This document shows, piece after piece, positions 8,306 to 64,000 of a DNA stretch of 64,000 bases. The position numbers and the translations under genes were made by a program. Source of the stretch: an uncultured Candidatus Binatia bacterium (GTDB taxonomy: Bacteria; Desulfobacterota; Binatia; HRBIN30; CADEER01); NCBI GenBank assembly GCA_965216585.1, contig CBDCGC010000003.1, positions 2,337,219 through 2,401,218 on the forward strand. Reading direction: 5' to 3'. Below the pieces are notes generated by a model that was given only the letters and a program-made list of their open reading frames with translations, was not told where the DNA came from and searched no databases. Every line of letters starts with the position of its first letter. Positions within the stretch are counted from its first letter, which is position 1.

Positions 8306-9499
8306 ATGTCGGCGCTGCGCGCGGCGAATGCGCAGGCGGCAGCGTTGTCGCCACGCCAGCGGGCGGCAATCGTCGGCGAGTTGGCTGAGGCGTGGTTGCA
8401 GCCGGCATCACCGTGGTTGGCGCGCGCGGTAGACGCACTCACCGCCGCCGGGCCGTTCTCTCGGCCCATGCTCGAGCACGCTCTGCCGAGGATGATCGAA
8501 CCGCTGCGCGGCGATGCCATCGAACGCCTGGTGCGACGGGAGCTGGGCGACTGGCCCGAGCCAGCCGCAGCCAGTCTGGTAGTGCACATCCTGCCGAGCA
8601 ACCTGGCCGGGCACGCCGCGATTCCAGGCGCCCTGTCGCTCGTCGTCGGCGGCGCCTGCCTGCTCAAGTCCGGCCGTCGCGATCAGGACTTTGGCCGCCT
8701 GTGGGTCGAGTCGCTGCGCGCCACCAACGCCACGCTCGGAGCCTGCATCGAAAACCTGTACTGGCGCGGCGGCGATCGGCAGATTGAAGATTCAGTGTTC
8801 GGCGGTGCGGATGTGGTGATCGCGGCGGGCAGCGATCGCGCCATCGCCGACATCGGGGATCGCTGTCGAGGTCGATTCGCCGGCTACGGGCACCGCCTCA
8901 GCTTTGCCGTCGTCAGCGCCGGCGCCGACGTGCGCGCGGCGGCGAGCTGCTTGGCCGACGACATCGCGATCTGGGACCAACTGGGATGCTTGTCGCCACA
9001 GTCGTGCTTCGTCCAGGGCCCTCGCCAGCGCAGTGTCGAGCTGGCGGAACACCTCGCCGGCGAGCTGGCCGAGCGCGCACGGCGCTGGCCACCAGCCAGG
9101 CTGGAGGTCGGTGAGTTGCTGGCGATACGCCGCTTCCGCGACGCCGCGGCCTGGCGCGGCTTCGCGACAGGTGAGCCGTGTCTGTTTGCCGCCTCTGACG
9201 ATCTGGCCGCCGGCAACGTCGTCATCGACGAGGCCGGCAACTTCGCAGCGACGCCGCTCCACCGCTGCCTGCGCCTACTACCGTTTGCATCGCCAGACGA
9301 GGTGCGCGATGTCGTCGCAACGCAGCGCGGGCTTCTCGAAGGGGCGGCCGTCGCCGCACCGCCAGAGCAATGGGAGTCGTGGTGTGCGATCTTGCACGAG
9401 GCCGGTGTCCCGCAGGTGGTCGGCGCCGGAGAGCTCCAACGACCGACACTCGAGTGGCGGCAGAGCGGACGCGATCGGCTCGCCGGAGTCTATCTCTGA
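8306..9499 (+). CDS. luxC: acyl-CoA reductase, LuxC family (fatty aldehyde-forming)
   Basis: Similarity to LuxC: HILPSNLAGHAAIPGALSLVVGGACLLKSG, GADVVIAAGSDRAI, IWDQLGCLSPQSCFV (compare FYDQQACFSTQNIYY). Starts 23 nt after luxE. Confidence 0.75.
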   Translation: MSALRAANAQAAALSPRQRAAIVGELAEAWLQPASPWLARAVDALTAAGPFSRPMLEHALPRMIEPLRGDAIERLVRRELGDWPEPAAASLVVHILPSNLAGHAAIPGALSLVVGGACLLKSGRRDQDFGRLWVESLRATNATLGACIENLYWRGGDRQIEDSVFGGADVVIAAGSDRAIADIGDRCRGRFAGYGHRLSFAVVSAGADVRAAASCLADDIAIWDQLGCLSPQSCFVQGPRQRSVELAEHLAGELAERARRWPPARLEVGELLAIRRFRDAAAWRGFATGEPCLFAASDDLAAGNVVIDEAGNFAATPLHRCLRLLPFASPDEVRDVVATQRGLLEGAAVAAPPEQWESWCAILHEAGVPQVVGAGELQRPTLEWRQSGRDRLAGVYL

Positions 9500-12064: not shown

Positions 12065-13051
12065 TCAGTAGAGACTCTTCTCGCCCGGAGGTCTGGTTCG
12101 CCACCGCTTGTGAAACCAAATCCAGTGGTCGGGGTGCTTTCGCAGAATCTCCTCGATGGCGCCGTTGCACCGCTCGGTCGTGCGCTGGATGTCGGCTGCA
12201 CGATCGCCAGTGTCGGCGACCTCGATGTCGGGCAAGAAGACGACGCGGTGGCGCTCGCTCTCGCCTTCGCGGACGATGAAGATCGGAACGATCGGTGCTC
12301 CGGTGTGGTGGGCCATCCATGCCGGCCCGGTCGTCGTGCAGGCGGGAATACCAAAGAAATCGGCAAAGACACCGGCGTTGGCGGTTTGGTTCTGATCGGC
12401 GAGCAGGGCAATCATCTTCTTGTCGCGCAGGGCCCGCAACAGCGCGCGCGCGGCGCTCTTCTTGGGCACGGAAACCGAACCGGCGCCGGCCCGGAGATCG
12501 AGGATGAGACGATCGACGAGAGGGTTGCGCATGGTTCGGTGGGCGAGGGTAACCGGATAGCCGAGCAGGCCGTGCGCATGCGCCAGTAGCTCGAAGTTGC
12601 CGAAGTGGGCGGTCAGCATGATTCTGCCCTGACGATCTACGTCTTCGACGACCGACGTCCAGCGCTCGCGATCATCGATGGTGATGTAGCGATCGATGTC
12701 GCCGGCCGTGAGCGAGCGGAAATGGCACACCTCCGCCAACATCCGACCGAGGTTGCGACATGAGCGGCGCAGTACGGTTTCGTTCTCACCCAGCGAACGC
12801 TCGGGAAACGCGCGCGCCAGGTTGGCGAGGGCGACCCGCCGTTTGCTTTGGTCGACATAGTAAAACGCTTCGCCGATCTTGGCTCCGATGGCCAAGGCGC
12901 GGCGACGCGGCATCGAGCCCAGGAGCGCCAGGGCGGCTCGAACGGCACCGTATTCGAGCCGGTCGCGCGCGGTGATCGACGGCGCCGGCGTGCTACAACC
13001 TCGCGGCGAAGGCTTCTGCCTCGCGTGTTTGAAATCCGCTGTAGACCTCAC
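12065..13051 (-). CDS. LpxL/HtrB-family lipid A late acyltransferase (lysophospholipid acyltransferase superfamily)
   Basis: HFGNFE motif (the HX4(D/E)-type LpxL box) and N-terminal ...NLARAFPERS region typical of Kdo2-lipid IVA lauroyl/myristoyl transferases. Start at 13051 overlaps the upstream gene by 58 nt; the alternative ATG at 12913 is less consistent with the family N-terminus. Confidence 0.7.
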   Translation of the reverse strand: MRSTADFKHARQKPSPRGCSTPAPSITARDRLEYGAVRAALALLGSMPRRRALAIGAKIGEAFYYVDQSKRRVALANLARAFPERSLGENETVLRRSCRNLGRMLAEVCHFRSLTAGDIDRYITIDDRERWTSVVEDVDRQGRIMLTAHFGNFELLAHAHGLLGYPVTLAHRTMRNPLVDRLILDLRAGAGSVSVPKKSAARALLRALRDKKMIALLADQNQTANAGVFADFFGIPACTTTGPAWMAHHTGAPIVPIFIVREGESERHRVVFLPDIEVADTGDRAADIQRTTERCNGAIEEILRKHPDHWIWFHKRWRTRPPGEKSLY

Positions 13052-52856: not shown

Positions 52857-55800
52857 GTGATTCCCAGGCTACCGCCAGAGGACGCGATCGAACCACTGTA
52901 CCGCGAGTTTCTCGACGAGCTCGGCGCAGGGCCCTTCAGCGGCGACATCCGCACCGACTTCGCCTCGCGCATCGTCCTCGCGACCGACAATAGCGTCCAC
53001 CAGATCGTACCTCAGGCCATCCTCTTCCCGCGCACGCGCAGCGACGTGCAGGCGGTCGGACGTCTCGCCAATCAACACCGATTTCACCGCATCCGTTTCG
53101 CTCCTCGCGGTGGAGGCACAGGAACCAACGGCGGCTCGCTCGGCACGGGAGTGTGTGTCGATCTATCGCGCTACATGAACCGCATTCTCGACCTCGACGT
53201 CGAGGCCAAACGGTTGCGCGTCGAGCCGGGTGTGACACTCGATCAAGTCAACCACTTCCTGGCAGCGCACGGGTTGTTCTTCGCGCCTCACGTCGCCCCG
53301 TCGGATCGCGCCACCTTGGGCGGCATGGTCAGTACCGACGCCAGCGGTATCGGTTCGCGCGTCTATGGCCGCACCAGCAATCACGTCGAGTCGATCGGAG
53401 TGGTTCTCGCCGACGGATCGTACTGGCGCTCGCAGCCCCTGCGGAGCGATGACGCAACGACTGAGTTGCCCGAGCGAATCGCCGCAGCAGCGGCTCTCGT
53501 CGCCAAAATCACACGCACACATGCCGGCGAAATCCAAACCCGTTTCCCGACCCACGACCGCTTCCTCACCGGCTACGACCTCGCCCACGCAGCGCGAGAC
53601 GACGAGATCAATCTGACCGCCATTCTCTGCGGTTCGGAAGGGACTCTCGGCTTCGTCGTCGACGTCGAGCTGCAGTTGACGGCGCGGCCGGCATGCACCG
53701 AGTTGACGGCTCTCTTCTACGCCTCCTTCGACGACGCGCTGGCCGATGCCCAGGCGTTGGTGGATCTCGACCCGACGGCGATCGAGACGATCGACGAGAC
53801 GATTCTCTCGTTGGCGCGCCAGGATCCGGTTTGGCGGCGAGTGGCATCCTGCGTCGAGTCCGCCGGCGCCGGACAAGCGAGGGCGATGAACCTGGTCGAA
53901 GTCAGCGGCAACGACGCCGGCGAGGTCAGCCGGCGGATGACGGAAGTCGACGCGATGGCGGCGCGGGGAGTCGCACTCGGATCCCATCGCGCCGCCCGTC
54001 GCGACGACGCCGAGGCCCTGTGGGAGCTGCGCAAGAAGGGCGTCGGGTTGCTCGGTGCGATGGCGGGCCGACGCCAACCCGTCGCCTTCGTCGAGGACTG
54101 CGCGCTACCACCGTCGGAGCTGCCGGCTTTCGTTCGCGAGATGCGCGAGATCTTGGCAAGCGAGAACCTCGACTACGGAATGTACGGACATGTCGACGTC
54201 GGCTGTCTACACGTCCGGCCGGCCCTCGACCTGCGCGACCCGGCCGACGAGCGGCGCCTGCGCGACATCTCCGACAGAGTCTTCGAGCTCGTACGGGCGC
54301 ACGGCGGTGTGTTCTGGGGCGAGCACGGAAAGGGGTTGCGATCGCACTACAACCCGCAGGTCTTCGGCCCCGTCCTCTACGAGGACTTGTGCCGGATCAA
54401 ACGGGCATTCGATCCGCACGACCAAATGAATCCGGGCAAGGTGGCCACCGCGTCACCGAATGCCAGCCTGGCACCAATCGGTGGGGACTTGCGCGGCACA
54501 CGCGATCGCGACATCGCCGCATCAGTAGAGCGACGGATCGCAGCCACCGTTGCCTGCAACGGCAACGGCGCATGTTTCTCTCTTTCGACGGGGCAGACGA
54601 TGTGCCCATCGATGAAGGAGCGCGGCGACCGCGTTCACTCACCCAAGGGCCGCGCCGCCCTCCTGCGAGAGTGGGCACGCGGTTTGTCGCGGCTCGGCTG
54701 GGACGGCACCGAGCCCTACGCCGCCGCTCGCCTTCGCAACGCCATCGATCCGCAGCGCTGGTCGCGCTTCTTCGCCGGCGCACCGGATTTCTCCCACCAG
54801 GTGTACGACGCCCTCGACGGATGCCTCGCTTGCAAGGCCTGTGTCGGTCAGTGCCCCATCCACGTCGACATACCATCGTACAAAGCCGAGTTCCTCTACG
54901 AGTACCACCAGCGCTACCCGCGTTCCGCCGAAGACGTTCTCATCGCGCGACTGGAATCGGCGCTACCGCACCTTGCGCCGCACGCCGGCGCACTCAACTT
55001 CCTCTTGCAATCGCGGTTCGCCGAATGGTTGTCCGGCAAGGTTTTCGGACTGACCTCCTTGCCACGTCTCGCGTCTCGCCCAGCGGATGCGATCCTGCGC
55101 GAACGCGGCGCGTTGATCCTCGACGGCAACGACTTCGGCGAAGGCGAGGCAGAGGTGGCTCTGTTGCTCGACGCCTTTTCCAACTTCCTGGCGCCGCAGG
55201 TCGCGCTCAGCGCCTACGAAACGATGCGCCAAACCGGCAGAACAGTCGCGGTGTTACCGTACCGCCCGAGCGGCAAATCCTTTCACGTCAAGGGCTACCT
55301 CGCCGAGGCACGCCGATTGGCGGAGGACAACTCGCGGGCCCTGGCGCCGCTCGCCGCCAGCGGTGTGGAAGTTTTTTGCGTCGATCCGGCGATCGCCTTG
55401 TTGTTTCGCCAGGAGTATCCCGCCCTACTCGGAAAGACCGCGGCGGCGCGCGTCTTTCTGCCACAAGAGATTTTGGCGGCGAGTCCAGATCGCCTACCAC
55501 CTGCCGGCGGCAGCGGTAGCTACGTTCTCCTCGCGCACTGCACCGAATCGACGACCCTGGCGAGCGCCGGAGACGATTGGAAGCGCGTTTTCGCTGCAGC
55601 CGGGTTGCGGCTCGAGACGAGGCGAGTTGGTTGTTGTGGCATGGCCGGCGCCTACGGACACCAAGCGCGACACCAAGAGGCGTCACGCCGCATCTTCAAT
55701 CTCTCCTGGGCTCAGCCGATCAAAGATCTGAGCCCATCGAGAATCCTCGTTACCGGCCACTCGTGCCGCACCCAGGTCGAACGCCTGGCCGGCTTTTCTC

Positions 55801-55871
55801 CGCGCCACCCGCTGCAGGTTCTGGAGGAAAGATGGGCATCATCAGCGCCCGATCCGGTTGAGACGCTGTAG
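52857..55871 (+). CDS. FAD-linked oxidase fused to (Fe-S)/CCG-domain module, YdiJ-like (D-2-hydroxyacid dehydrogenase-type)
   Basis: 1004 aa; N-terminal FAD-binding PCMH domain (RGGGTGTNGGS), central 4Fe-4S motif (CLACKACVGQCP), C-terminal Cys-rich CCG domains (CCGMAGAYG...HSCRTQ). Same size and architecture as E. coli YdiJ. Confidence 0.8.
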   Translation: MIPRLPPEDAIEPLYREFLDELGAGPFSGDIRTDFASRIVLATDNSVHQIVPQAILFPRTRSDVQAVGRLANQHRFHRIRFAPRGGGTGTNGGSLGTGVCVDLSRYMNRILDLDVEAKRLRVEPGVTLDQVNHFLAAHGLFFAPHVAPSDRATLGGMVSTDASGIGSRVYGRTSNHVESIGVVLADGSYWRSQPLRSDDATTELPERIAAAAALVAKITRTHAGEIQTRFPTHDRFLTGYDLAHAARDDEINLTAILCGSEGTLGFVVDVELQLTARPACTELTALFYASFDDALADAQALVDLDPTAIETIDETILSLARQDPVWRRVASCVESAGAGQARAMNLVEVSGNDAGEVSRRMTEVDAMAARGVALGSHRAARRDDAEALWELRKKGVGLLGAMAGRRQPVAFVEDCALPPSELPAFVREMREILASENLDYGMYGHVDVGCLHVRPALDLRDPADERRLRDISDRVFELVRAHGGVFWGEHGKGLRSHYNPQVFGPVLYEDLCRIKRAFDPHDQMNPGKVATASPNASLAPIGGDLRGTRDRDIAASVERRIAATVACNGNGACFSLSTGQTMCPSMKERGDRVHSPKGRAALLREWARGLSRLGWDGTEPYAAARLRNAIDPQRWSRFFAGAPDFSHQVYDALDGCLACKACVGQCPIHVDIPSYKAEFLYEYHQRYPRSAEDVLIARLESALPHLAPHAGALNFLLQSRFAEWLSGKVFGLTSLPRLASRPADAILRERGALILDGNDFGEGEAEVALLLDAFSNFLAPQVALSAYETMRQTGRTVAVLPYRPSGKSFHVKGYLAEARRLAEDNSRALAPLAASGVEVFCVDPAIALLFRQEYPALLGKTAAARVFLPQEILAASPDRLPPAGGSGSYVLLAHCTESTTLASAGDDWKRVFAAAGLRLETRRVGCCGMAGAYGHQARHQEASRRIFNLSWAQPIKDLSPSRILVTGHSCRTQVERLAGFSPRHPLQVLEERWASSAPDPVETL

Positions 55872-56251
55872 TTCCACACGATCTTCACGGCGGCTTGGGG
55901 GTCGTTAGGATCGATGTCCGGAAAAGGCCATCCGTAGACGTAGTTCGGTACGTTGCCGCTGCTGCGTTCGATGACCGTGCCGTCCGGAGGCAAAGCGTAG
56001 CGGCCGCGGTTGCGTTCGAGCGCTGCCTGAAAGATCGGATCGTCACCGATCTCTTCGACGTCGAAGTCGCGAACCTCGTGGCGCAAATCGCCACGCCGAT
56101 AGGCCTCCAGAAACTCCGCCGGCAGCAAGCCCCGAGCCTGCTGCCAACTCTCGGTGCCGAGGACGACACCCGGCTCAACGCCGCGCGCGGCCGGCGTACA
56201 GAGCAGGCAAACCAGCAGCTGTGCTAGTATCCTGAAGCGGACTTTCGACAC
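55872..56251 (-). CDS. small secreted protein, probably a truncated remnant
   Basis: Signal peptide MSKVRFRILAQLLVCLLCTPAARG. The 55712..56251 ORF runs 160 nt into the 3' end of the ydiJ-like gene, suggesting truncation. Confidence 0.3.
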
Positions 56252-56275: not shown

Positions 56276-56575
56276 CTACCAGCAGAGAATCGCGGCCGTA
56301 CCGTCCGGCTTGCGGCATTCCAGACCGACGTGGAGGCGGCGCTCGTCCCGGAGGTCGGCTCCGGCATCATCGACCGGCTCGTGGAGAAAGAGTTGGCTCT
56401 CGTCACGAGTAAAGTAGGTCGCCACGAGCACGACGAGGATCGCCGCGCCGGTGCCAACGGCGCTCCAAAGCAGGATTTCGTCCGTGTCCAAAGCATCCGC
56501 CGGGTGCGGGTTGGTCGCGGCAATCGCAAACAACGCCACTACCGCCATCAGCACAGCTCTCATCCACTTTCTCAT
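56276..56575 (-). CDS. small membrane protein (two hydrophobic helices), hypothetical
   Basis: MRKWMRAVLMAVVALFAIAA...GAAILVVLVATYF. Confidence 0.35.
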   Translation of the reverse strand: MRKWMRAVLMAVVALFAIAATNPHPADALDTDEILLWSAVGTGAAILVVLVATYFTRDESQLFLHEPVDDAGADLRDERRLHVGLECRKPDGTAAILCW

Positions 56576-56929
56576 CTCAAGCCTCCGTCAGCTCTCTTGC
56601 GAACGACGGCGACTGATCCGTGATCCGCGTTGCGAGCGATGCATCGATCGTAGTGCGCAGCGTATGACGCATCCCAAAGCAAGTCCACACAGAAAAACCT
56701 CCCACTGGGCCGGCCGCCTATCCAACCCCGCGGAAAATATGCATAACAACATACAAGCCCAAAAACAGAGAGCCTCCCAGGGCGAGCGATCTCTTGTCAA
56801 ACGATCGTTTGCTGCGAATGAATTTGAGACAAACGGTATTGCAAGAAGTCCGACGCGAGGAAGACTCAGTGTGCCCAAAGATCGACAGGCCCCGACCGGA
56901 CGAATCCTGCCGAGGCCTGTGAGTCTCCG

Positions 56930-56988
56930 CTACTCTGGTGAGAGTAGGTGCGGAGCGTGAAACGGATTCTGTCAGACCTACTCTCACC
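56930..56988. promoter_or_regulatory. operator-like inverted repeat: ctactct-GGTGAGAGTAGG ... 29 nt ... CCTACTCTCACC downstream of the XRE repressor gene; same 13-mer recurs at 57393-57405
   Basis: tGGTGAGAGTAGG at 56936-56948, its reverse complement at 56977-56988, and catGGTGAGAGTAGG at 57391-57405 in the divergent promoter region. Confidence 0.35.
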
Positions 56989-57023
56989 ATGTCCAGTATC
57001 GTGCCACAGGCTCCCCGCTCCAG

Positions 57024-57275
57024 TCAATCACAGTCCACAAAGAAACGGCCGACCGGTATGCCGAATGCGCGTGAGATCGCCTCCAAACTGCGGGCATTAG
57101 GCACCCTCTCGCCCGACTCCCAGCGCCGGACGGTCATCCCTCGCAACTTCGGCGCCTCCAGGCCCTGAGCCTCCAGTGAGCGACAAATAGTATCCGCGAA
57201 GCGCTCGGGGCTCATGTCCATCCCCTCGCGCAGTGTACGGATCTCCCCGGGCTCAAACCTCTGACCTAGTCCCAT
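57024..57275 (-). CDS. XRE-family helix-turn-helix transcriptional repressor (phage Cro/CI-like)
   Basis: MSPERFADTICRSL...GMTVRRWESGERVPNARSLEAISRAFGIP HTH_3 signature. True start is probably the internal Met (about 57221). Confidence 0.7.
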   Translation of the reverse strand: MGLGQRFEPGEIRTLREGMDMSPERFADTICRSLEAQGLEAPKLRGMTVRRWESGERVPNARSLEAISRAFGIPVGRFFVDCD

Positions 57276-57345
57276 ATCGGGGGTTGCACTACCACACTCC
57301 TTCAGGCTATGTCAAATCGATGTTCTCTTTTCGGTTGAAACATAC

Positions 57346-57385
57346 TCCTCATTTCGGTTGACATTTGGGCGCGGGGATGCGACTA
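57346..57385 (+). promoter_or_regulatory. putative rightward early promoter: TTGACA, then about 18-20 nt, then TATAAG; preceded by direct repeat tttcggttga x2
   Basis: cggTTGACAtttgggcgcggggatgcgacTATAAGg immediately upstream of the 57392 ORF. Confidence 0.3.
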
Positions 57386-57391
57386 TAAGGC

Positions 57392-57793
57392 ATGGTGAGA
57401 GTAGGAACAGAGGCAAGAACCCCCGCCGAAACCAGCAGATTTTCAGCGGATTGCCCATATTGCGGGCGCATCGACTGCGGTTGCTACGACGGCCGCGTTG
57501 TCGCCGGCGGCCTGGTGGCAGTGATCGCTGGCTACGAGGGGGCGGGCGTCGACTGGCCGGTATATCCGACCACCGGAGTGGAGCACTCGACCAATCGGGA
57601 GATCCCCGGCGAGGCGATCGACACCGGCCACCTGGCCGACTGGCTCGGTCTGCCGGCGGGCGAGATTGAGCGACTGACGGCGATCGCCAACGAGGGTGAC
57701 CTCAGGCGCGCGCTTGCCGCGATGATCGAATGTCCGGATTGCGCCGAGTTCCCGAGCTGGTGCGAGTGTGCGGCCAGCGAGGTGGCGGCATGA
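57392..57793 (+). CDS. hypothetical Cys-rich protein (CPYCGRIDCGC ... CPDCAEFPSWCEC)
   Basis: 133-aa ORF whose first codons overlap the operator-like 13-mer. Translationally coupled (ATGA) to the next ORF. Confidence 0.4.
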   Translation: MVRVGTEARTPAETSRFSADCPYCGRIDCGCYDGRVVAGGLVAVIAGYEGAGVDWPVYPTTGVEHSTNREIPGEAIDTGHLADWLGLPAGEIERLTAIANEGDLRRALAAMIECPDCAEFPSWCECAASEVAA

Positions 57794-58011
57794 TCGAGGA
57801 TCGGTGGCTGACGCAGTCGCGGGCGATCTATAGGCGCCTGCTGGACGGCACCGCAACCGCGCGCGATCGACTCGACATCGCGATCATGGTGCATGAGATG
57901 CGCGAGGCGCACCTGCCGGTACCGGCCGAGATCGTGGCGGCTGCCGGCGCGCCGCCGGCTTGGTACCTCGCTGGCGACCCGATGCCGGCGGCAGAGCGGA
58001 GGAGGGTTTAG
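57790..58011 (+). CDS. hypothetical protein
   Basis: MIEDRWLTQSRAIYRRLLDG...; ATGA overlap with the upstream ORF. Confidence 0.3.
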   Translation: MIEDRWLTQSRAIYRRLLDGTATARDRLDIAIMVHEMREAHLPVPAEIVAAAGAPPAWYLAGDPMPAAERRRV

Positions 58012-58013
58012 GG

Positions 58014-59894
58014 ATGAGGATCTCCCGGGACGCAGAGCGCTGGGTGGCCGAGAGCACCTACGAGGAGCGGGCCATTCCGAAACGCGCCGGCTGGCGTTGG
58101 GACCCGAAGGACAAGTGCTGGTGGACGGACGACATCGAGAAGGCGGCGCGACTAGCGGAGTACGCCGACGAGGGTTGCGCCGATGAACTGCGGCCGATCC
58201 TCGATGAGCAGCAGGCCGCACTGGCGGCGTCGCGCGCTGTAGATTCCGACATCGACGTCCCCGCGCCGGACGGCCTGGCGTACCTCCCGTACCAACGCGG
58301 AGGCATTGCCTTCGCCGCCGCGCGCGAAGCCTGCCTGATCGGCGACGAGATGGGGCTTGGCAAGACGATTCAGGCCCTCGGCGTGATCAACCTCGACGAA
58401 TCGATCCGCCGCGTCCTGGTTGTCTGTCCCGCGTCACTCAAGGCCAACTGGGCCATCGAGGCGCGCAAGTGGCTGGTCCGCGACATGTCGGTGGGCATCG
58501 CGGCAGGTAGGCGCCTGCCCGACGCCGATGTCGTGATCGTCAACTACGCAATCCTCACCAAGCTGCCGCTCGATTCCGTGGAGTGGGACCTGCTCATCGC
58601 CGACGAGTGCCACTACGCGAAGAATCCCAAAGCCAAGCGCACGAAAGCGCTCTTTGCGGTCAAGGCGGCGCGCAGGATTCTTCTCACCGGAACCCCGATC
58701 GTCAACCGGCCCGTCGAGCTCTGGCCGCTGATCAAGTACCTCGACCCGAAGCGCTGGAAGAACAAGATGAGGTTCGGCTGGCGCTACTGCGGCGCGCATC
58801 AGAACGCCTACGGGTACTGGGACTTCTCGGGCGCCACGAATCTCGACGAGCTGCAGGAGATTCTCCGTAGCACGATCATGGTTCGCCGGTTGAAGGTCGA
58901 CGTTCTTACTGACCTTCCGCCCAAGGTCCGCCAGGTTGTCGAGTTGCCGTCGGATGGCATGGACTGGGCGCACGAATCGGACGCCAGCGACGCCTACGAC
59001 GACCTGCAAGCTGCGGAGGAAGAGGTCGACGCCCTCGACGAGTCCGCGCCCGGGTACGAGGCCGCGGTCGGCCGACTCAAGCAGGCCAGGCGGTTTTTCT
59101 TCGACGAAATCAGCCGGGTGCGGCACGAGACGGCGCTCGCGAAAGTGCCGCACGCAATCGAGCACCTGCACAACGCGCTCGAGGACGGCCGCAAGATCGT
59201 GTGCTTCGCGCACCACCATGACGTCATCGAGGCGCTGGCCTCCGAGTTTGGTGACTCGGCGGTAGTGATCTACGGCGAAACGAATGTGGACGACCGGCAG
59301 GGCGCCGTCGACCGCTTCCAGTCCGATCCGGATTGCCGCCTCTTCGTTGGCAGCATCGGCGCCGCCGGAGTCGGGCTAACGCTCACCGCGGCGGCGCACG
59401 TTGTCTTTGTCGAGCTCGACTGGGTGCCGGGCAATGTCAGCCAGGCAGAGGATCGCTGCCACCGCATCGGACAGCGCGATAGCGTGCTGGTGCAACACCT
59501 GGTCTTCAACGGATCAATCGACGCCCGTATCGCGCGCACGATCATCGCCAAGCAGCGGGTGATTGACGATGCACTCGATACGCAGCACCTGCCCGCCGAA
59601 CCCGCACAACCGAAGCCGGTCGCACACGACCCGGAGCTACCGGCCGCGCAGGTGGAAGCGATCCACAATGGGTTGCGGATGTTGGCCGCATTCTGCGACG
59701 GAGCTCGCGAGGTCGATGGGGCCGGATTCAACAAACTCGATACCGACTTTGGGAAATCCCTTGCAGGTGCCCAGTCGCTGAGCCCTAAGCAGGCCAGGGC
59801 TGGTCGCAAGCTCGTGAGGAAGTACCGGCGACAGTTACCAGATGACCTGGTCGCAGTAGCCGTCGACGGCCCGCAAGCCGAGGTAACGGCATGA
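58014..59894 (+). CDS. SNF2/RAD54-family DEAD/DEAH-box helicase (phage-type)
   Basis: GGAGG Shine-Dalgarno; motifs GDEMGLGKT (I), DECH (II), LLTGTPIVN (III), C-terminal helicase domain (GSIGAAGVGLTLTAA, QAEDRCHRIGQ). Confidence 0.85.
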   Translation: MRISRDAERWVAESTYEERAIPKRAGWRWDPKDKCWWTDDIEKAARLAEYADEGCADELRPILDEQQAALAASRAVDSDIDVPAPDGLAYLPYQRGGIAFAAAREACLIGDEMGLGKTIQALGVINLDESIRRVLVVCPASLKANWAIEARKWLVRDMSVGIAAGRRLPDADVVIVNYAILTKLPLDSVEWDLLIADECHYAKNPKAKRTKALFAVKAARRILLTGTPIVNRPVELWPLIKYLDPKRWKNKMRFGWRYCGAHQNAYGYWDFSGATNLDELQEILRSTIMVRRLKVDVLTDLPPKVRQVVELPSDGMDWAHESDASDAYDDLQAAEEEVDALDESAPGYEAAVGRLKQARRFFFDEISRVRHETALAKVPHAIEHLHNALEDGRKIVCFAHHHDVIEALASEFGDSAVVIYGETNVDDRQGAVDRFQSDPDCRLFVGSIGAAGVGLTLTAAAHVVFVELDWVPGNVSQAEDRCHRIGQRDSVLVQHLVFNGSIDARIARTIIAKQRVIDDALDTQHLPAEPAQPKPVAHDPELPAAQVEAIHNGLRMLAAFCDGAREVDGAGFNKLDTDFGKSLAGAQSLSPKQARAGRKLVRKYRRQLPDDLVAVAVDGPQAEVTA

Positions 59895-60181
59895 CCGGCC
59901 GCTATTGCCCGAAGTGCCGCGCCATCTGGTGTCACCCCTCGGCGTACTGCGAGCACCTGCGAGTCGACGGCTACGCGCAGGATATGCGGCTCTACGTCGA
60001 CGCGGTGCGCCGGGAGGCCGAGGCGATCGCGCAGGCGGTGGAGGGCATCGACCGCACCGCACTGTCGAGCCCGGAGCTCGCGGCGATCGCGGATCGGATG
60101 GAGCAGCGCAGCAGCGAGCTGCTCGACATCACGGACACGGCCGCGACGACGATTGAGCGGCTACAGCGGGGGCTGTCGTGA
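59891..60181 (+). CDS. hypothetical zinc-ribbon-like protein
   Basis: CPKCRAIWCHPSAYCEH N-terminus; overlaps the helicase stop. Confidence 0.35.
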   Translation: MTGRYCPKCRAIWCHPSAYCEHLRVDGYAQDMRLYVDAVRREAEAIAQAVEGIDRTALSSPELAAIADRMEQRSSELLDITDTAATTIERLQRGLS

Positions 60182-60450
60182 TGGTTGGGGCCGCATTCGG
60201 GATTATTGCCGGAATCGAACTGGGAAAGGTCTTTCGGCTCGAGATCTTGCGGCGGGTGCAGACCCTAACCGGCCCGGATCGGCTTCACATCTGGGCGTAC
60301 TGGCTGGCGGACTATCACCCCGGGCACCCAGACGGAGAACACCGAATCGCCGAACGCGGCCAGTTCTTTGTCGTGTACGAAGACGAAGCCGATCGGCGCT
60401 GGCCCGACGCCGTCAGTGTGGACACGGACATTGGCCGGGAGGCGGCGTGA
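60178..60450 (+). CDS. hypothetical protein
   Basis: 90-aa ORF in the translationally coupled phage-like array. Confidence 0.3.
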   Translation: MMVGAAFGIIAGIELGKVFRLEILRRVQTLTGPDRLHIWAYWLADYHPGHPDGEHRIAERGQFFVVYEDEADRRWPDAVSVDTDIGREAA

Positions 60451-60890
60451 TGGCCGCCAGGGTTTCCGTTGCCGAAGCTCGATCGCGACGAGATGCGGAC
60501 TTTGCCGCCGGCGCTGATGCGCGCCGCAAGCAGATCGCCCGCGAGCTGCGATCCATTGCACGTCAGGTTGAGTGCGGCGACTCCGACGAAACGGTGCTCG
60601 CCGCCGCCGGGCGACTGATCCAGCACAACCAAGCCAGCCGCGAACGGTGCGCGGCCTTCTACTCAATCCACGAAGCGGCCGCCGGCACCGGGTCGAGCGT
60701 GTCCTACCGCGTCGACGCGCACGTTGAGAGCGAGACGGTCCCTGCCGGGTCGTTTCCGGCCTTCGACGAGGCGCTCGACTACTGCCGCGACGTCTTCGCG
60801 CGCCGCGGGGCCAGGTTCGGAATCGATCGAGTCTGCGACGGGCACTGGGTGACCGCGTCGCTACAGATCACGGGAGGTACAACGACATGA
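60450..60890 (+). CDS. hypothetical protein
   Basis: ATG 60450 overlaps the upstream stop; 146 aa. Confidence 0.35.
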   Translation: MAARVSVAEARSRRDADFAAGADARRKQIARELRSIARQVECGDSDETVLAAAGRLIQHNQASRERCAAFYSIHEAAAGTGSSVSYRVDAHVESETVPAGSFPAFDEALDYCRDVFARRGARFGIDRVCDGHWVTASLQITGGTTT

Positions 60891-61810
60891 TCACAGAAGA
60901 GCAACGACAGCGACGCAAGGGCTTTCTCGGGTCGTCCGATGCGGCGGCGGTATTCGATCTCGACCCCTTCCGAGACAAGACCTCAGTCTACTGGGACAAG
61001 GTCGCGGACATGCCCGACGATGGGCCAACCGCATCAATGCGCGCGGGCAACCTGCTCGAGGGCGCCATCCTCGACTACGCAGCGCAGGAGCTCGGCGTTG
61101 AGATCGAGCGAGATATCGAAATTGCGCCGCCGGCAGATCTGCCGTACATGGGCGCCAATCTCGACGGGCGCGTCGACGGCAAGACTCACGAGGGCGTCGA
61201 GGCTAAGTACGACACCTTCACGGTCGACCAGTGGGGCGACGAAGGGACGGACCAGGTACCCGAGCGCGTCATCGTGCAGGTGCACCACCAGATGGCGGTG
61301 GCGGCGCTCGACCGAGTGTGGGTTCCGGTGCTCAAGCCGCGCGGCTTCGGCTTGTACGTGGTCGACCGATCCGAGGAGTTGATATCCCAGGTCATCGAGG
61401 GCGAGCGGAAGTTCTGGGACGAGCATGTGTTGGCAGAGTTGCCGCCGTCGGGCGACCCGACCCCGCCGCTGGCGTACCTCAAGGCGCGCAACCGTGAACC
61501 GGAGTCGATCGTAGATCTCGACGAGGCGGCCCTTGAAGCCTGGCGCGAGCTCGAAGAGAGGCGCGCAACCGCTAAGGCCGCGAAAGAGGATGTCGACGCG
61601 GCGCAGGCGCGCGTGATTGATCTACTCGGGGACGCCGAGGGTGGACGTCTGCCCTCCGGTGACCTGATCACTTTCCTCGAGCAGAAGTCGGCGCCGTCGT
61701 GCGACAGCAAGCGGCTGCGCGCGTTGCATCCGGACGTGTACCGCGAGTTCTTCCGCCAAGGTACGCACCGGCGACTCAGGCTCAAGGCAGCGAAGAGGGC
61801 GGCGGCGTGA
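60887..61810 (+). CDS. YqaJ-like viral recombinase-domain exonuclease (PD-(D/E)XK, lambda-Exo-like)
   Basis: RRKGFLGSSDAAAVFDLDPFRDKTSVYWDK...MRAGNLLEGAILDYAAQELG...ANLDGRVDG...EAKYD pattern typical of YqaJ; paired with RecT. Confidence 0.7.
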   Translation: MITEEQRQRRKGFLGSSDAAAVFDLDPFRDKTSVYWDKVADMPDDGPTASMRAGNLLEGAILDYAAQELGVEIERDIEIAPPADLPYMGANLDGRVDGKTHEGVEAKYDTFTVDQWGDEGTDQVPERVIVQVHHQMAVAALDRVWVPVLKPRGFGLYVVDRSEELISQVIEGERKFWDEHVLAELPPSGDPTPPLAYLKARNREPESIVDLDEAALEAWRELEERRATAKAAKEDVDAAQARVIDLLGDAEGGRLPSGDLITFLEQKSAPSCDSKRLRALHPDVYREFFRQGTHRRLRLKAAKRAAA

Positions 61811-62013
61811 CGAACCACCCGTCAGCGCCGAGCGGCTCCGTGCTTCCCCTAGGGGCACGGGGAGTCTCGAAGGGGGCTCGTGCGCAGTTTCCTTGTTGTA
61901 TCGGCGCAAGCGCACCGCGTGCCGTCCGCTGCGCTGCTCATCGGCTGGCCCTCCGGGAGCAATAGACGGCAAGGGCCGATTTTCATCGACGAAAATCCAG
62001 AAAGGAGATTGTG

Positions 62014-62844
62014 ATGGCAAACGCAGTGGCAAAGGTCTCAACCCTGCGCGAGATGCTCGAGAAGAGTAAGGCGCAGATCCAACAAGCACTCCCCCGCCAC
62101 ATGGACGCCGACAAGATGGCGCGCGTGGCGATGACCAGCATCCAGAACACACCGGCACTGCTCGAGTGCGATCCCAAGACGGTGCTCGGCGCGGTGATGG
62201 AAGCAGCGCAACTCGGACTCGAGCCCGACGGCGTACTCGGGCATGCATACCTCGTGCCGTACAAGCGCAAGTGCACTCTGATCGTCGGCTACAAGGGGAT
62301 GATCGCGCTCGCGTACCGCAGCGGGCAGGTGCTCTCGCTCAAGGGCAACGTGGTCTACGAGACCGACGAATTCGAGGTCGCCTTCGGCATCGACGAGAAG
62401 TTGAAACACGTACCGGATTACGAGTCGAAGAAGCGAGGCAATCGAGTCTGCACCTACGCAATCGCGCACATGAAAGACGGAGGGCACGCCTTCGTAGTGC
62501 TCTCGATGCACGAGGTCGAGGCGCACCGGAAGAAATCAGCGTCGGCCAACTCGCCGGCATGGAAGGATCACTACGACGCGATGGCGATCAAGACCGCGGT
62601 GCGCGTCTTGGCGCGGTGGATTCCGCAGTGTCCCGAGCTCCAGCAGGCGGGCGCGAGAGAGGATTCCATGGAGGGCGGTGCGGATCCCGATGGGTTGGTG
62701 ATCGACATCACCGAGGATCAGGACGACAACCGCACCGACCAGGTGGCGCGCAAGATCAAGGGGGATGCGGACAAGCCCAAGGCCGAGGATAAGCCCAAGG
62801 CTGACAAAGCCCCTGACCCCGACGACGACGGTGAGGCGGTCTGA
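62014..62844 (+). CDS. recT: RecT-family single-strand annealing recombinase
   Basis: AAAGGAG Shine-Dalgarno; ...SIQNTPALLECDPKTVLGAVMEAAQLGLEPDGVLGHAYLVPYKRKCTLIVGYKGMIALAYRSGQV... RecT signature; acidic C-terminal tail. Confidence 0.8.
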   Translation: MANAVAKVSTLREMLEKSKAQIQQALPRHMDADKMARVAMTSIQNTPALLECDPKTVLGAVMEAAQLGLEPDGVLGHAYLVPYKRKCTLIVGYKGMIALAYRSGQVLSLKGNVVYETDEFEVAFGIDEKLKHVPDYESKKRGNRVCTYAIAHMKDGGHAFVVLSMHEVEAHRKKSASANSPAWKDHYDAMAIKTAVRVLARWIPQCPELQQAGAREDSMEGGADPDGLVIDITEDQDDNRTDQVARKIKGDADKPKAEDKPKADKAPDPDDDGEAV

Positions 62845-64000
62845 TGCGGATCAGGACCGAGGGGCTAGGGGAGTACGACCACGACGTCAGGCTCGGCAAG
62901 CTGGCGCTGGTGGTCGGTGCTAACGGTAGCGGCAAGACCAAGCTGGCTGAGGCGGTGCGCCTGGTCGCACTCGGCTACTCCCCAGCGTTCGGCAAGCGGC
63001 CGGCTGACACCGCCGACCTGATGCACGGATCGAAGATGTCGGTGTTGGTCGAGCCGTTCGACGACGGCCGCACCGCAGAGTTTCGGCTCAAGTCCCACGG
63101 CAAGGGCTACCGGACCGAGCGGCGCGCAAGCTGGCTCGAGGAAAAGGCCACGTCGCCCGAGCACGCAGCGGCGGCGATGGCGCTTTTCGGGCGCGAGGAG
63201 TCCGAGATCGCCGAGCTGATGCACATCGAGTCGCTCACGCACGCCACGCCGAACCAGCGCGACGCCCGCATACAAGAGCTGATCGAGTCCGCGGTCGACC
63301 CAGAGCGCACGGTGCGCGCCTTCGGGCGCTACGCACTGGCGCGCCTGGCCGGGCGCGAGGACGACATCCCCGCCAACTACAAAGCGCTGCGCTCATCAAT
63401 CCCCGGTTACAGCGAGGACGGCGATCACGAGGGGCAGTACGCCCTCCTGCGCGAGGTGGCGGCGCGCGTAAAGCAGGCGCTACGCCAGGGCATTGCCGAC
63501 GCGATCAACCTCTGCAACGTCGAGAAGCGCAAGGCGGCGGGCGACATGCGCGAGCTGAAGGCGGCGCGCCGCGAATTCGAGGCGCGCATGAAAGAGCTGG
63601 GCGAGGTCTCAGACGACGAGATCGCCAAGCTGACCAAGCGCTCGCAGGAGCTCCAGCGGCGTATCGGCGGCGTCGAGGAGCGACTACTCGACGTGCGGCG
63701 CGCCGCGAAGCGTATTCGCGAGGCCGAAGCGCTCGTCGCGCGCAAGGAGGATGCGTTGGCCGAGGCCGAGCGGGAGCGGGGATTCTTCGAAGAGGACGAC
63801 GACCGAGAGACTCAGCTTGACCGCATCGACCTTTGTGACTCTGAGATTGCAAAGATCAAAGAGGGCGCCGAACCGGCAACACCCGATGTCGCCGAGCTGG
63901 AGACTGACCTTGCCGCCCTCGACGAAGAGATTTCGTCGACGAAAGTCCCAGACGTTCCGGAGCCCAGCGTGGCGCTCGAGCTGGAGCTACGCGAAGCGCG
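62844..64000 (+). CDS. AAA/SMC-like ATPase with long coiled-coil (phage recombination/repair associated), partial: continues beyond window
   Basis: Walker A GANGSGKT near the N-terminus; extended coiled-coil (KELGEVSDDEIAKLTKRSQELQRRIGGVEERLLD...); TGATG overlap with recT. Confidence 0.55.
   Translation, partial: MRIRTEGLGEYDHDVRLGKLALVVGANGSGKTKLAEAVRLVALGYSPAFGKRPADTADLMHGSKMSVLVEPFDDGRTAEFRLKSHGKGYRTERRASWLEEKATSPEHAAAAMALFGREESEIAELMHIESLTHATPNQRDARIQELIESAVDPERTVRAFGRYALARLAGREDDIPANYKALRSSIPGYSEDGDHEGQYALLREVAARVKQALRQGIADAINLCNVEKRKAAGDMRELKAARREFEARMKELGEVSDDEIAKLTKRSQELQRRIGGVEERLLDVRRAAKRIREAEALVARKEDALAEAERERGFFEEDDDRETQLDRIDLCDSEIAKIKEGAEPATPDVAELETDLAALDEEISSTKVPDVPEPSVALELELREA

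Follow-up and report, generated by a model that had tools for sequence, protein, structure and literature searches.

A temperate-phage-type immunity switch and early recombination operon at the probable left end of an integrated element in a Candidatus Binatia chromosome

The segment from 57024 to the end of a 64,000-nt stretch of DNA from an uncultured Candidatus Binatia bacterium (assembly GCA_965216585.1, contig CBDCGC010000003.1, positions 2,337,219 to 2,401,218; the whole stretch is hereafter called the window) is best explained as the left end of a chromosomally integrated element of the temperate-phage type, comprising an immunity switch and an early rightward operon for replication and recombination. 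We put the probability of this reading at about 0.78. The element is of an ordinary, known kind; it adds a divergent lineage that is scarce in databases, and a conserved repeat in its switch is unexplained. Its identification is of use mostly for annotation, as a mobile segment of phage origin is thereby marked in a 4.77-Mb genome, with its left junction narrowed to ~290 nt. An SMC-like ATPase gene beside recT, a co-varying 13-mer architecture in the switch, and relatives associated with the RNase P RNA gene rnpB are modest leads rather than surprises, and they leave the overall class unchanged.

The segment opens with the gene for a small XRE-family regulator on the minus strand, which is followed, after a 116-nt intergenic region, by the plus-strand genes p133, p73, SNF2, p96, p90, p147, YqaJ, RecT, and ATPase. 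Six gene models (XRE, p133, p73, SNF2, p96, and YqaJ) agree exactly, in both starts and stops, with the source's own gene calls on its single 4,773,090-bp contig (NCBI/ENA), and RecT, read from the ATG at 62014, is 100% identical to protein P0001. The GC content at third codon positions (GC3) is 0.71–0.91 in all called genes, compared with 0.49–0.57 for the spurious open reading frames (ORFs) of 56576–56990, which supports the coding status of the called genes.

A first-pass annotation of this DNA had described all genes after the repressor as co-oriented and translationally coupled. Reading of the junctions confirms this for most of the operon: ATGA overlaps join p133 to p73, SNF2 to p96, and p147 to YqaJ, TGATG overlaps join p96 to p90, p90 to p147, and RecT to ATPase, and p73 is separated from SNF2 by a 2-nt spacer. 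However, the coupling is interrupted once, by a 203-nt non-coding gap before RecT (61811–62013, plus strand), which is the only junction of the operon that has neither an overlap nor the 2-nt spacer. The gap contains two GC-rich hairpins and the RecT Shine-Dalgarno sequence AAGGAG; the z-score of its fold (−1.4) is not significant, and its ORFs, with GC3 of 0.53–0.64, have no coding signal. In a related locus described below (L002), a gene for a 124-residue protein occupies this place (2209–2583). The gap may be either a deletion scar or an internal regulatory site.

The recognizable products, namely the XRE regulator, the SNF2 helicase, the YqaJ exonuclease, RecT, and the AAA/SMC-like ATPase, are all encoded where the first-pass annotation had placed them. 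The SNF2-family helicase or translocase (626 residues, 58014–59894, plus strand) has both lobes of the motor, with matches to SNF2-rel_dom (PF00176, E = 6e-36, 124.5 bits) and Helicase_C (PF00271, 2.5e-14, 53.9 bits) and the motifs GLGKT and DECH, and it matches the family phrog_62, annotated as DNA helicase, at 2e-115. It belongs to a very large family of proteins of ~650 residues, in which 6903 full-length-type homologues were found at E<=1e-30, the best being 63–64% identical. More than 1100 records of cultured phages match it, with the best match in Thermus phage phiLo (41% identity over 99% of the protein), and IMG/VR contigs yield matches of ~50% identity. The similarity to the phage helicases of PHROG 62 (Thermus phiLo, MN1, Rhodothermus RM378, and Caulobacter phiCbK-like phages) is collinear over the full length, including the N-terminal extension, at 35–41% identity over 81–99% of the protein. 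These phages are, however, mostly large and lytic and carry the gene in replication clusters, whereas in the window SNF2 is the third gene of an early operon that is presumably controlled by a repressor. Several close homologues of 937–1002 residues (P0134, P0189, and P0244) have intein/LAGLIDADG domains (PF14528, PF14890) inserted in the helicase.

The recombination genes proper are identified by strong family matches. The product of the first (307 residues, 60887–61810, plus strand) is a YqaJ or RecE-like PD-(D/E)XK 5'-3' exonuclease, with matches to PF09588 (7e-18, 65.8 bits with a cut-off of 22), phrog_434, "RecE-like recombination exonuclease" (5e-59), and TIGR03033 (2e-16), and it is 56% identical to the product of the syntenic gene in L002. 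The second gene (276 residues, 62014–62844, plus strand) encodes a RecT single-strand annealing protein, matching PF03837 (4e-49, 167 bits with a cut-off of 24), TIGR00616 (216 bits with a cut-off of 52.65), phrog_148 (2e-81), and NF007351 (2e-81). Lying 203 nt downstream of YqaJ on the same strand, it forms with the exonuclease gene a RecET/YqaJ-RecT pair. Homologues of this RecT with ~50% identity sit in phage-type contigs: in one of them (L005) the gene is accompanied by those for a tail fibre, an amidase, RusA, HNH, TerS, and TerL, and in another (L006) YqaJ and RecT lie ~1.4 kb from a prophage/host boundary.

Phage recombinases of the YqaJ/RecET type are represented by RecE-RecT of the Rac prophage, YqaJ-YqaK of the Bacillus subtilis skin element, and gp60-gp61 of mycobacteriophage Che9c, with Exo-Bet of lambda as a functional analogue. 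The window resembles the RecET and YqaJ-YqaK systems in the adjacent and co-oriented genes for a YqaJ-family PD-(D/E)XK exonuclease and RecT within a phage early operon. It differs from them in that the two genes are split by the non-coding gap, are preceded by the gene for a conserved 147-residue protein, and are followed by that for a 761-residue SMC-like ATPase; further, a Gam-like gene is not recognizable in the window.

The ATPase gene (62844–64000, plus strand) is cut by the end of the window after 385 of its 761 codons. These N-terminal residues, with the Walker A motif GANGSGKT, are identical to residues 1–385 of the 761-residue protein P0251 of the source proteome, and given the length of P0251 the gene is expected to end near 65129. 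P0251 adds a long coiled coil, the signature LSGGE, and the Walker B motif VLLVEAD, and thus has an ABC head split by a coiled coil. Matches to SMC_N, AAA_23, and Rad50 are weak, with all Pfam and NCBIfam scores below the cut-offs, and no relatives were found by sequence in the PDB. The CxxC zinc hook of Rad50/SbcC is absent from P0251, which has a conserved tryptophan (W397) at the apex, and the window contains no Metallophos gene that could encode an Mre11/SbcD-type partner. A word-indexed homologue search with the ATPase fragment returned nothing, but an exhaustive HMMER search recovered a family of about 227 representatives at 50% identity (E<=0.001), typically of 740–780 residues. The fragment found no match in GTDB genomes, JGI metagenomes, or IMG/VR, nor did the family profile when IMG/VR was scanned with it. 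In all three related loci found (L002, L003, and L004), the ATPase gene is directly downstream of RecT. This ~760-residue SMC-like ATPase may represent a new accessory protein for recombination of the RecT type.

Protein searches showed that the closest relatives of the segment are mosaic phage-type loci. The closest one for the left arm, L007 (IMGVR_UViG_3300037722_001605), is a JGI contig of 22.6 kb that IMG/VR classes as viral. It contains, in this order, a divergent XRE regulator (56% identity), a small ORF, SNF2 (64%), small ORFs, and a p147 homologue (47%), whereas leftward of XRE it has an adjoining tyrosine integrase gene followed by HTH (helix-turn-helix), HNH, Phage_rep_O, and DnaB genes. 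At 12969–21093 of L007, genes for SbcD-like, SbcC-like, and DUF87 (HerA/FtsK-type) ATPase proteins stand where the window has YqaJ, RecT, and ATPase, that is, one end-processing module is swapped for another at an equivalent position. Two Logan contigs, L008 (SRR28170462_262441) and L009, have an 83-residue XRE (57%), two small ORFs, SNF2 (63%), small ORFs, and a p147 homologue (44%). A third Logan contig, L002 (SRR33375167_114821), keeps the gene order of the later part of the operon, with a p147 homologue (32%), YqaJ (56%), the extra 124-residue gene mentioned above, RecT (65%), and ATPase (46%), while in L003 and L004 RecT is followed by ATPase. Thus the proposal that this is a phage-type module is upheld by a nearest relative that is viral and contains integrase, Phage_rep_O, and DnaB genes, and by RecT homologues that lie beside tail, lysin, and terminase genes. 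The label "lambdoid" given in the first-pass annotation fits only loosely, as the helicase and recombination genes share a single rightward operon that adjoins the repressor gene, and an S24 peptidase domain is missing from the repressor.

The proposed immunity repressor, XRE (83 residues, 57024–57275, minus strand), consists of a single HTH_3 domain (Pfam, 5e-07) and matches PHROG families of transcriptional regulators and repressors. In the divergent promoter region between XRE and p133 (57276–57391), a rightward promoter is predicted from sequence with the −35 box TTGACA (57358–57363), a 17-nt spacer, and the −10 box GACTAT (57381–57386), and a leftward one with its −35 box at 57310–57315 (TGTCAA on the plus strand). 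The region also contains a direct repeat, CTCNTTTCGGTTGA, at 57325 and 57348. The layout of the rightward promoter is the same in L008 and L007, which have TTGACA, 17 nt, GATAAG (L008) or GATAAA (L007), 6 nt, and then ATGGTGAGA. An immunity repressor facing a divergent early promoter thus appears to be conserved in all three elements. The window shares with L007 and L008 the XRE regulator (56–57%), the architecture of promoter, 13-mer, and double hairpin, the small ORFs, SNF2 (63–64%), and the p147 homologue.

Downstream of the XRE stop codon, a conserved non-coding block emerged when the window was aligned with L008 and L007; in the window this block corresponds to the 3' region of the XRE transcript (56879–57023). 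On the minus strand, that is, in the sense of XRE, the block contains two hairpins, and the consensus of the three sequences has 32 pairs, eight of them with compensatory changes. Hairpin H2 (56879–56927, core 56888–56917) has a GC-rich stem capped by a UUCG loop, with a short U tract behind it; the hairpin is present in both the minimum-free-energy and the centroid folds, it is conserved with compensatory changes in L007 and L008, and U runs follow it in all three elements. We predict that H2 is the intrinsic terminator of the XRE transcript. An alternative origin of H2 as a decayed 3' end of rnpB was dropped, since the U tract and the compensatory changes favor the simpler reading as an XRE terminator. 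Hairpin H1 (56936–56989) has the arms TGGTGAGAGTAGG (56936–56948) and CCTACTCTCACCA (56977–56989) and a 28-nt loop. Both L007 and L008 retain its stem, in which two pairs show compensatory changes and one is a G-U that forms only in the minus-strand RNA. The loop measures 28, about 34, and about 43 nt in the three elements, and this variability speaks for selection on H1 as a hairpin and against a protein-binding dyad with fixed spacing.

The arm sequence of H1 recurs at the early promoter. The 13-mer TGGTGAGAGTAGG is present in only three exact copies in the 64 kb, the third of which (57393–57405, plus strand) lies 6 nt after the promoter-like TTGACA-17 nt-GACTAT, at the predicted +1 of the early transcript, and overlaps the ATG of p133; together with the arm at 56977 this copy makes a 15-nt inverted repeat. 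The positions of the −10 box, the 13-mer, and the ATG relative to each other are shared with L008 (13-mers at 1372–1431 and 1809–1821) and L007 (8897–8968 and 9393–9405), which suggests that the early mRNA is leaderless. The variable part of the 13-mer changes in concert across all three copies of each element, being GAGAGTAGG in the window, GAGAGTCG in L008, and GAGAACAG in L007. One arm in L007 reads GAGAGCAG instead of GAGAACAG, and the pair is kept as a G-U only in the minus-strand RNA. Pattern scans for the hairpin architecture elsewhere gave only L007 itself and one chance match in a low-GC contig, and the more distant IMG/VR relatives lack the 13-mer triple upstream of SNF2.

The TTTCGGTTGA repeats of the promoter region are candidate XRE-binding sites, beside the 13-mer TGGTGAGAGTAGG, whose copies may be asymmetric repressor operators. 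The nearest precedent is found in cluster A mycobacteriophages, where repressors of the L5 gp71 type bind asymmetric 13-bp operator or "stoperator" sites (PMC9283540, PMC6550527). The window recalls this system in that an asymmetric 13-nt motif is repeated exactly, has one copy at the early promoter, and co-varies between relatives that look heteroimmune. It differs in that there are three copies only, of which two form the stem of a variable-loop hairpin downstream of the repressor gene, and in that the putative repressor is a single HTH_3 domain of 83 residues and not a two-domain protein of the gp71 type. A second possibility is that RNA pairing contributes to the switch. The first 13 nt of the predicted early mRNA, including the AUG, are perfectly complementary to one arm of H1, and the other arm mimics that 5' end; an RNA derived from the 3' untranslated region of XRE could thus repress the early genes in trans, in a manner loosely comparable to that of the antisense immunity RNAs P4 CI and P1 C4. 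We consider this RNA mechanism improbable. Immunity that depends on integration, as in mycobacteriophage BPs, where attP lies inside the repressor gene and integration truncates the repressor (PMC4557955), was rejected: the C-termini of XRE align between the integrated-type copies (window and L008) and the integrase-adjacent copy of L007, and the putative attP of L007 is outside the gene.

Two of the relatives are associated with rnpB. L008 has a complete bacterial RNase P RNA gene (RF00010, 249 bits, 955–1308), whose end lies 14 nt short of H2. In L007, a stretch of 28 nt identical to the 3' end of the L008 rnpB (GGGACAGAATCCGGCTTATCGACCCTCT, blastn E=5e-12) is found in the opposite orientation at 8773–8800, between the integrase gene and H2, ~200 nt beyond the XRE stop codon, where we place the putative attP. 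One relative that abuts rnpB and one that contains its 3' end suggest that elements of the L007/L008 type use the 3' end of rnpB as the attachment site and that rnpB is an integration target of the lineage; no relevant report emerged from full-text literature searches on integration at rnpB. Integration of an element with the layout of L007 would leave the integrase gene at the end of the prophage opposite to XRE, and this would explain why no integrase gene adjoins XRE in the window. The window differs from both relatives in having neither rnpB nor an integrase gene at this place: there is no Rfam match to rnpB, the score of a local alignment with the L008 rnpB does not exceed that of shuffled sequence, and a search of the window for homologues of the L007 integrase was negative. 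An 11-nt match to rnpB in the H1 loop, CGGATTCTGTC, was judged to be due to chance.

On the left, the element borders on ordinary chromosomal genes, which encode enolase, a molybdopterin oxidoreductase, a FemAB-like protein, a cytochrome P450, and a 1004-residue FAD/Fe-S oxidase. The sole genomic relative found in GTDB, a contig of a metagenome-assembled genome (L001), is distant (~60% protein identity). It keeps the order from P450, p226, and the FAD oxidase through the homologues of p179 and p99, and its gene content differs after p99. Given this synteny of the left flank, the chromosome reaches at least to 56575, the start of p99. The homology among the window, L007, and L008 ceases at the U tract of H2, at about 56868. 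The chromosome/element junction (attL) therefore most likely falls within 56576–56868, a non-coding zone with a GC content of about 0.55, a minimum of 0.40 at 56800–56849, and ORFs with GC3 of 0.49–0.57. The first-pass annotation had pointed to 56580–57020; the zone was right, but its part from 56879 belongs to the conserved 3' region of XRE. That annotation had also noted the lack of a tRNA gene, an att repeat, and an integrase gene, and this holds for the whole window: tRNA and tmRNA scans of the 64 kb were negative, the DNA of 56500–57030 is not repeated elsewhere in the window apart from the 13-mer motif, and comparison with the L007 integrase was negative as described above. No Rfam family scored above threshold across the 64 kb; a match to sR53, an archaeal snoRNA, at 62818–62871 (27.7 bits with a gathering score of 49) was dismissed as chance.

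A separate observation concerns p179 (55712–56251, minus strand), a 179-residue ORF in the left flank. It matches only ~110 residues from the N-terminal region of a protein of roughly 430 residues in L001, and it runs antisense into the FAD/Fe-S oxidase gene, overlapping the 3' end of the latter at 55712–55871. Compared with L001, the window lacks about 1.7 kb at this place, namely an isochorismatase-like gene and the remainder of the p179 homologue. Thus p179 is probably a truncated gene.

Taken together, the genes suggest the following mechanism. The small XRE repressor would be transcribed leftward, with the two hairpins terminating its transcript, and would keep the divergent sigma-70-type early promoter shut. 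Once repression is lifted, a single polycistronic and translationally coupled transcript, perhaps leaderless, would be made, encoding the small proteins of unassigned role, the SNF2 translocase, and a two-component recombinase, in which the YqaJ exonuclease would resect double-strand ends and RecT would anneal the resulting single strand. The SMC-like ABC ATPase, kept beside RecT in this lineage, could tether or process DNA ends. In this scheme the genes with their identities, order, and coupling, the conserved architecture of the switch, and the phage affiliation of the relatives are observed, and repression by XRE, the start of transcription, and the biochemical roles are inferred.

Several observations weigh against assigning the segment to an integrated temperate phage. 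No structural, lysis, integrase, or att features were found within the 64-kb window, which ends inside the ATPase gene. The GC content of the operon, 0.62–0.70, is not distinct from that of the host flank. None of the relatives found joins this exact module to capsid or tail genes, the 22.6 kb of L007 contain no virion genes, and searches of cultured phages and IMG/VR gave no match to the ATPase. The generic sigma-70 scan did not call the promoters that we propose. Finally, clustering of ~15 billion sequences at 90% identity leaves every protein of the element as a singleton, and population data thus offer no evidence of mobility. At the DNA level, no relatives of the immunity region were found in cultured phages, and no close relatives of the segment in cultured phages or plasmids.

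These gaps bear on two other explanations. A defective or cryptic prophage remnant, in which only the immunity and early region is left and the virion and integrase genes have been lost, would be a sub-case of the phage reading, and we regard it as possible but less than likely. It would account for the integrase gene that adjoins XRE in L007 and does not in the window, for the 203-nt gap without coding signal in place of the 124-residue gene of L002, and for the truncated host gene p179 nearby, which shows local deletion activity. However, all ten ORFs are intact, with their overlaps preserved and strong GC3, the regulatory motifs are exact, and the absence of integrase next to XRE is expected from the layout of the L007 type. 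Still less probable is a non-phage integrative element, that is, an integrative conjugative element (ICE), an integrative mobilizable element, or a phage satellite, that has acquired a phage-like repressor switch and a Red/RecET-type module. Exonuclease and annealase pairs are found also on ICEs such as SXT, L007 combines 22.6 kb free of virion genes with a DUF87 ATPase of the FtsK/HerA type, and the ATPase family was not found in viral collections. On the other hand, none of the ten proteins matches relaxases, type IV secretion systems, or plasmid replication proteins, and the matches in the plasmid database reflect generic helicase similarity only. Further, L007 is viral according to IMG/VR and contains Phage_rep_O, HNH, and DnaB, and the best family matches of the three large proteins are all to PHROGs.

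An anti-phage defense island, combining an SNF2 protein of the Zorya ZorD, DISARM DrmD, or Dpd type with a Lamassu- or Wadjet-type SMC-like ATPase, is effectively excluded. The PADLOC models for ZorD, DrmD, and DpdE do match SNF2 (down to 1e-49), and those for LmuB, DndD, and JetC match the ATPase weakly. But the SNF2 scores, 133 bits for ZorD, 88 for DrmD, and 78 for DpdE, are far from the respective cut-offs of 1500, 950, and 500 and reflect the generic SNF2 core only, whereas the phage helicase family phrog_62 matches far better (2e-115); the matches of the ATPase are confined to the Walker A motif or the coiled coil. None of the partners ZorABC, DrmABC/MI, DpdABC, LmuA, or JetABD is encoded among the neighbors, and RecT and YqaJ, which lie between SNF2 and the ATPase, belong to none of these systems. 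The reading as the left end of an integrated temperate-phage-type element is thus retained.

The remaining genes of the operon encode small proteins, p133, p73, p96, p90, and p147, for which nothing matched in the family scans. The first early ORF, p133 (57392–57793, plus strand, GC3 0.76), has no match in Pfam, PHROG, NCBIfam, or PADLOC and is possibly translated from a leaderless mRNA. It contains eight cysteines in CxxC-type clusters, and p96 (59891–60181, plus strand, GC3 0.91), which overlaps SNF2, has an N-terminal CxxC...C...C cluster with four cysteines in the first 20 residues, so that the Cys-rich small ORFs remarked on in the first-pass annotation are real. Between p133 and SNF2 lies p73 (57790–58011, plus strand, GC3 0.84). 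The conserved hypothetical gene p147 (60450–60890, plus strand), which precedes the recombination module, has no family match; its product is 32–47% identical to ORFs of 143–152 residues placed alike in L002, L007, L008, and L009. A single-sequence AlphaFold model of this protein was unreliable (pLDDT of 60) and too poor for a fold search. For p90 (60178–60450, plus strand, GC3 0.74), the start is either GTG at 60178 or ATG at 60181, and the version starting at 60178 is absent from the protein collection. The p90 product is 35% identical to that of an 88-residue ORF in L008 (2002–2268), which is located upstream of SNF2 there and downstream of it in the window, indicating that this small gene has been shuffled within the operon.

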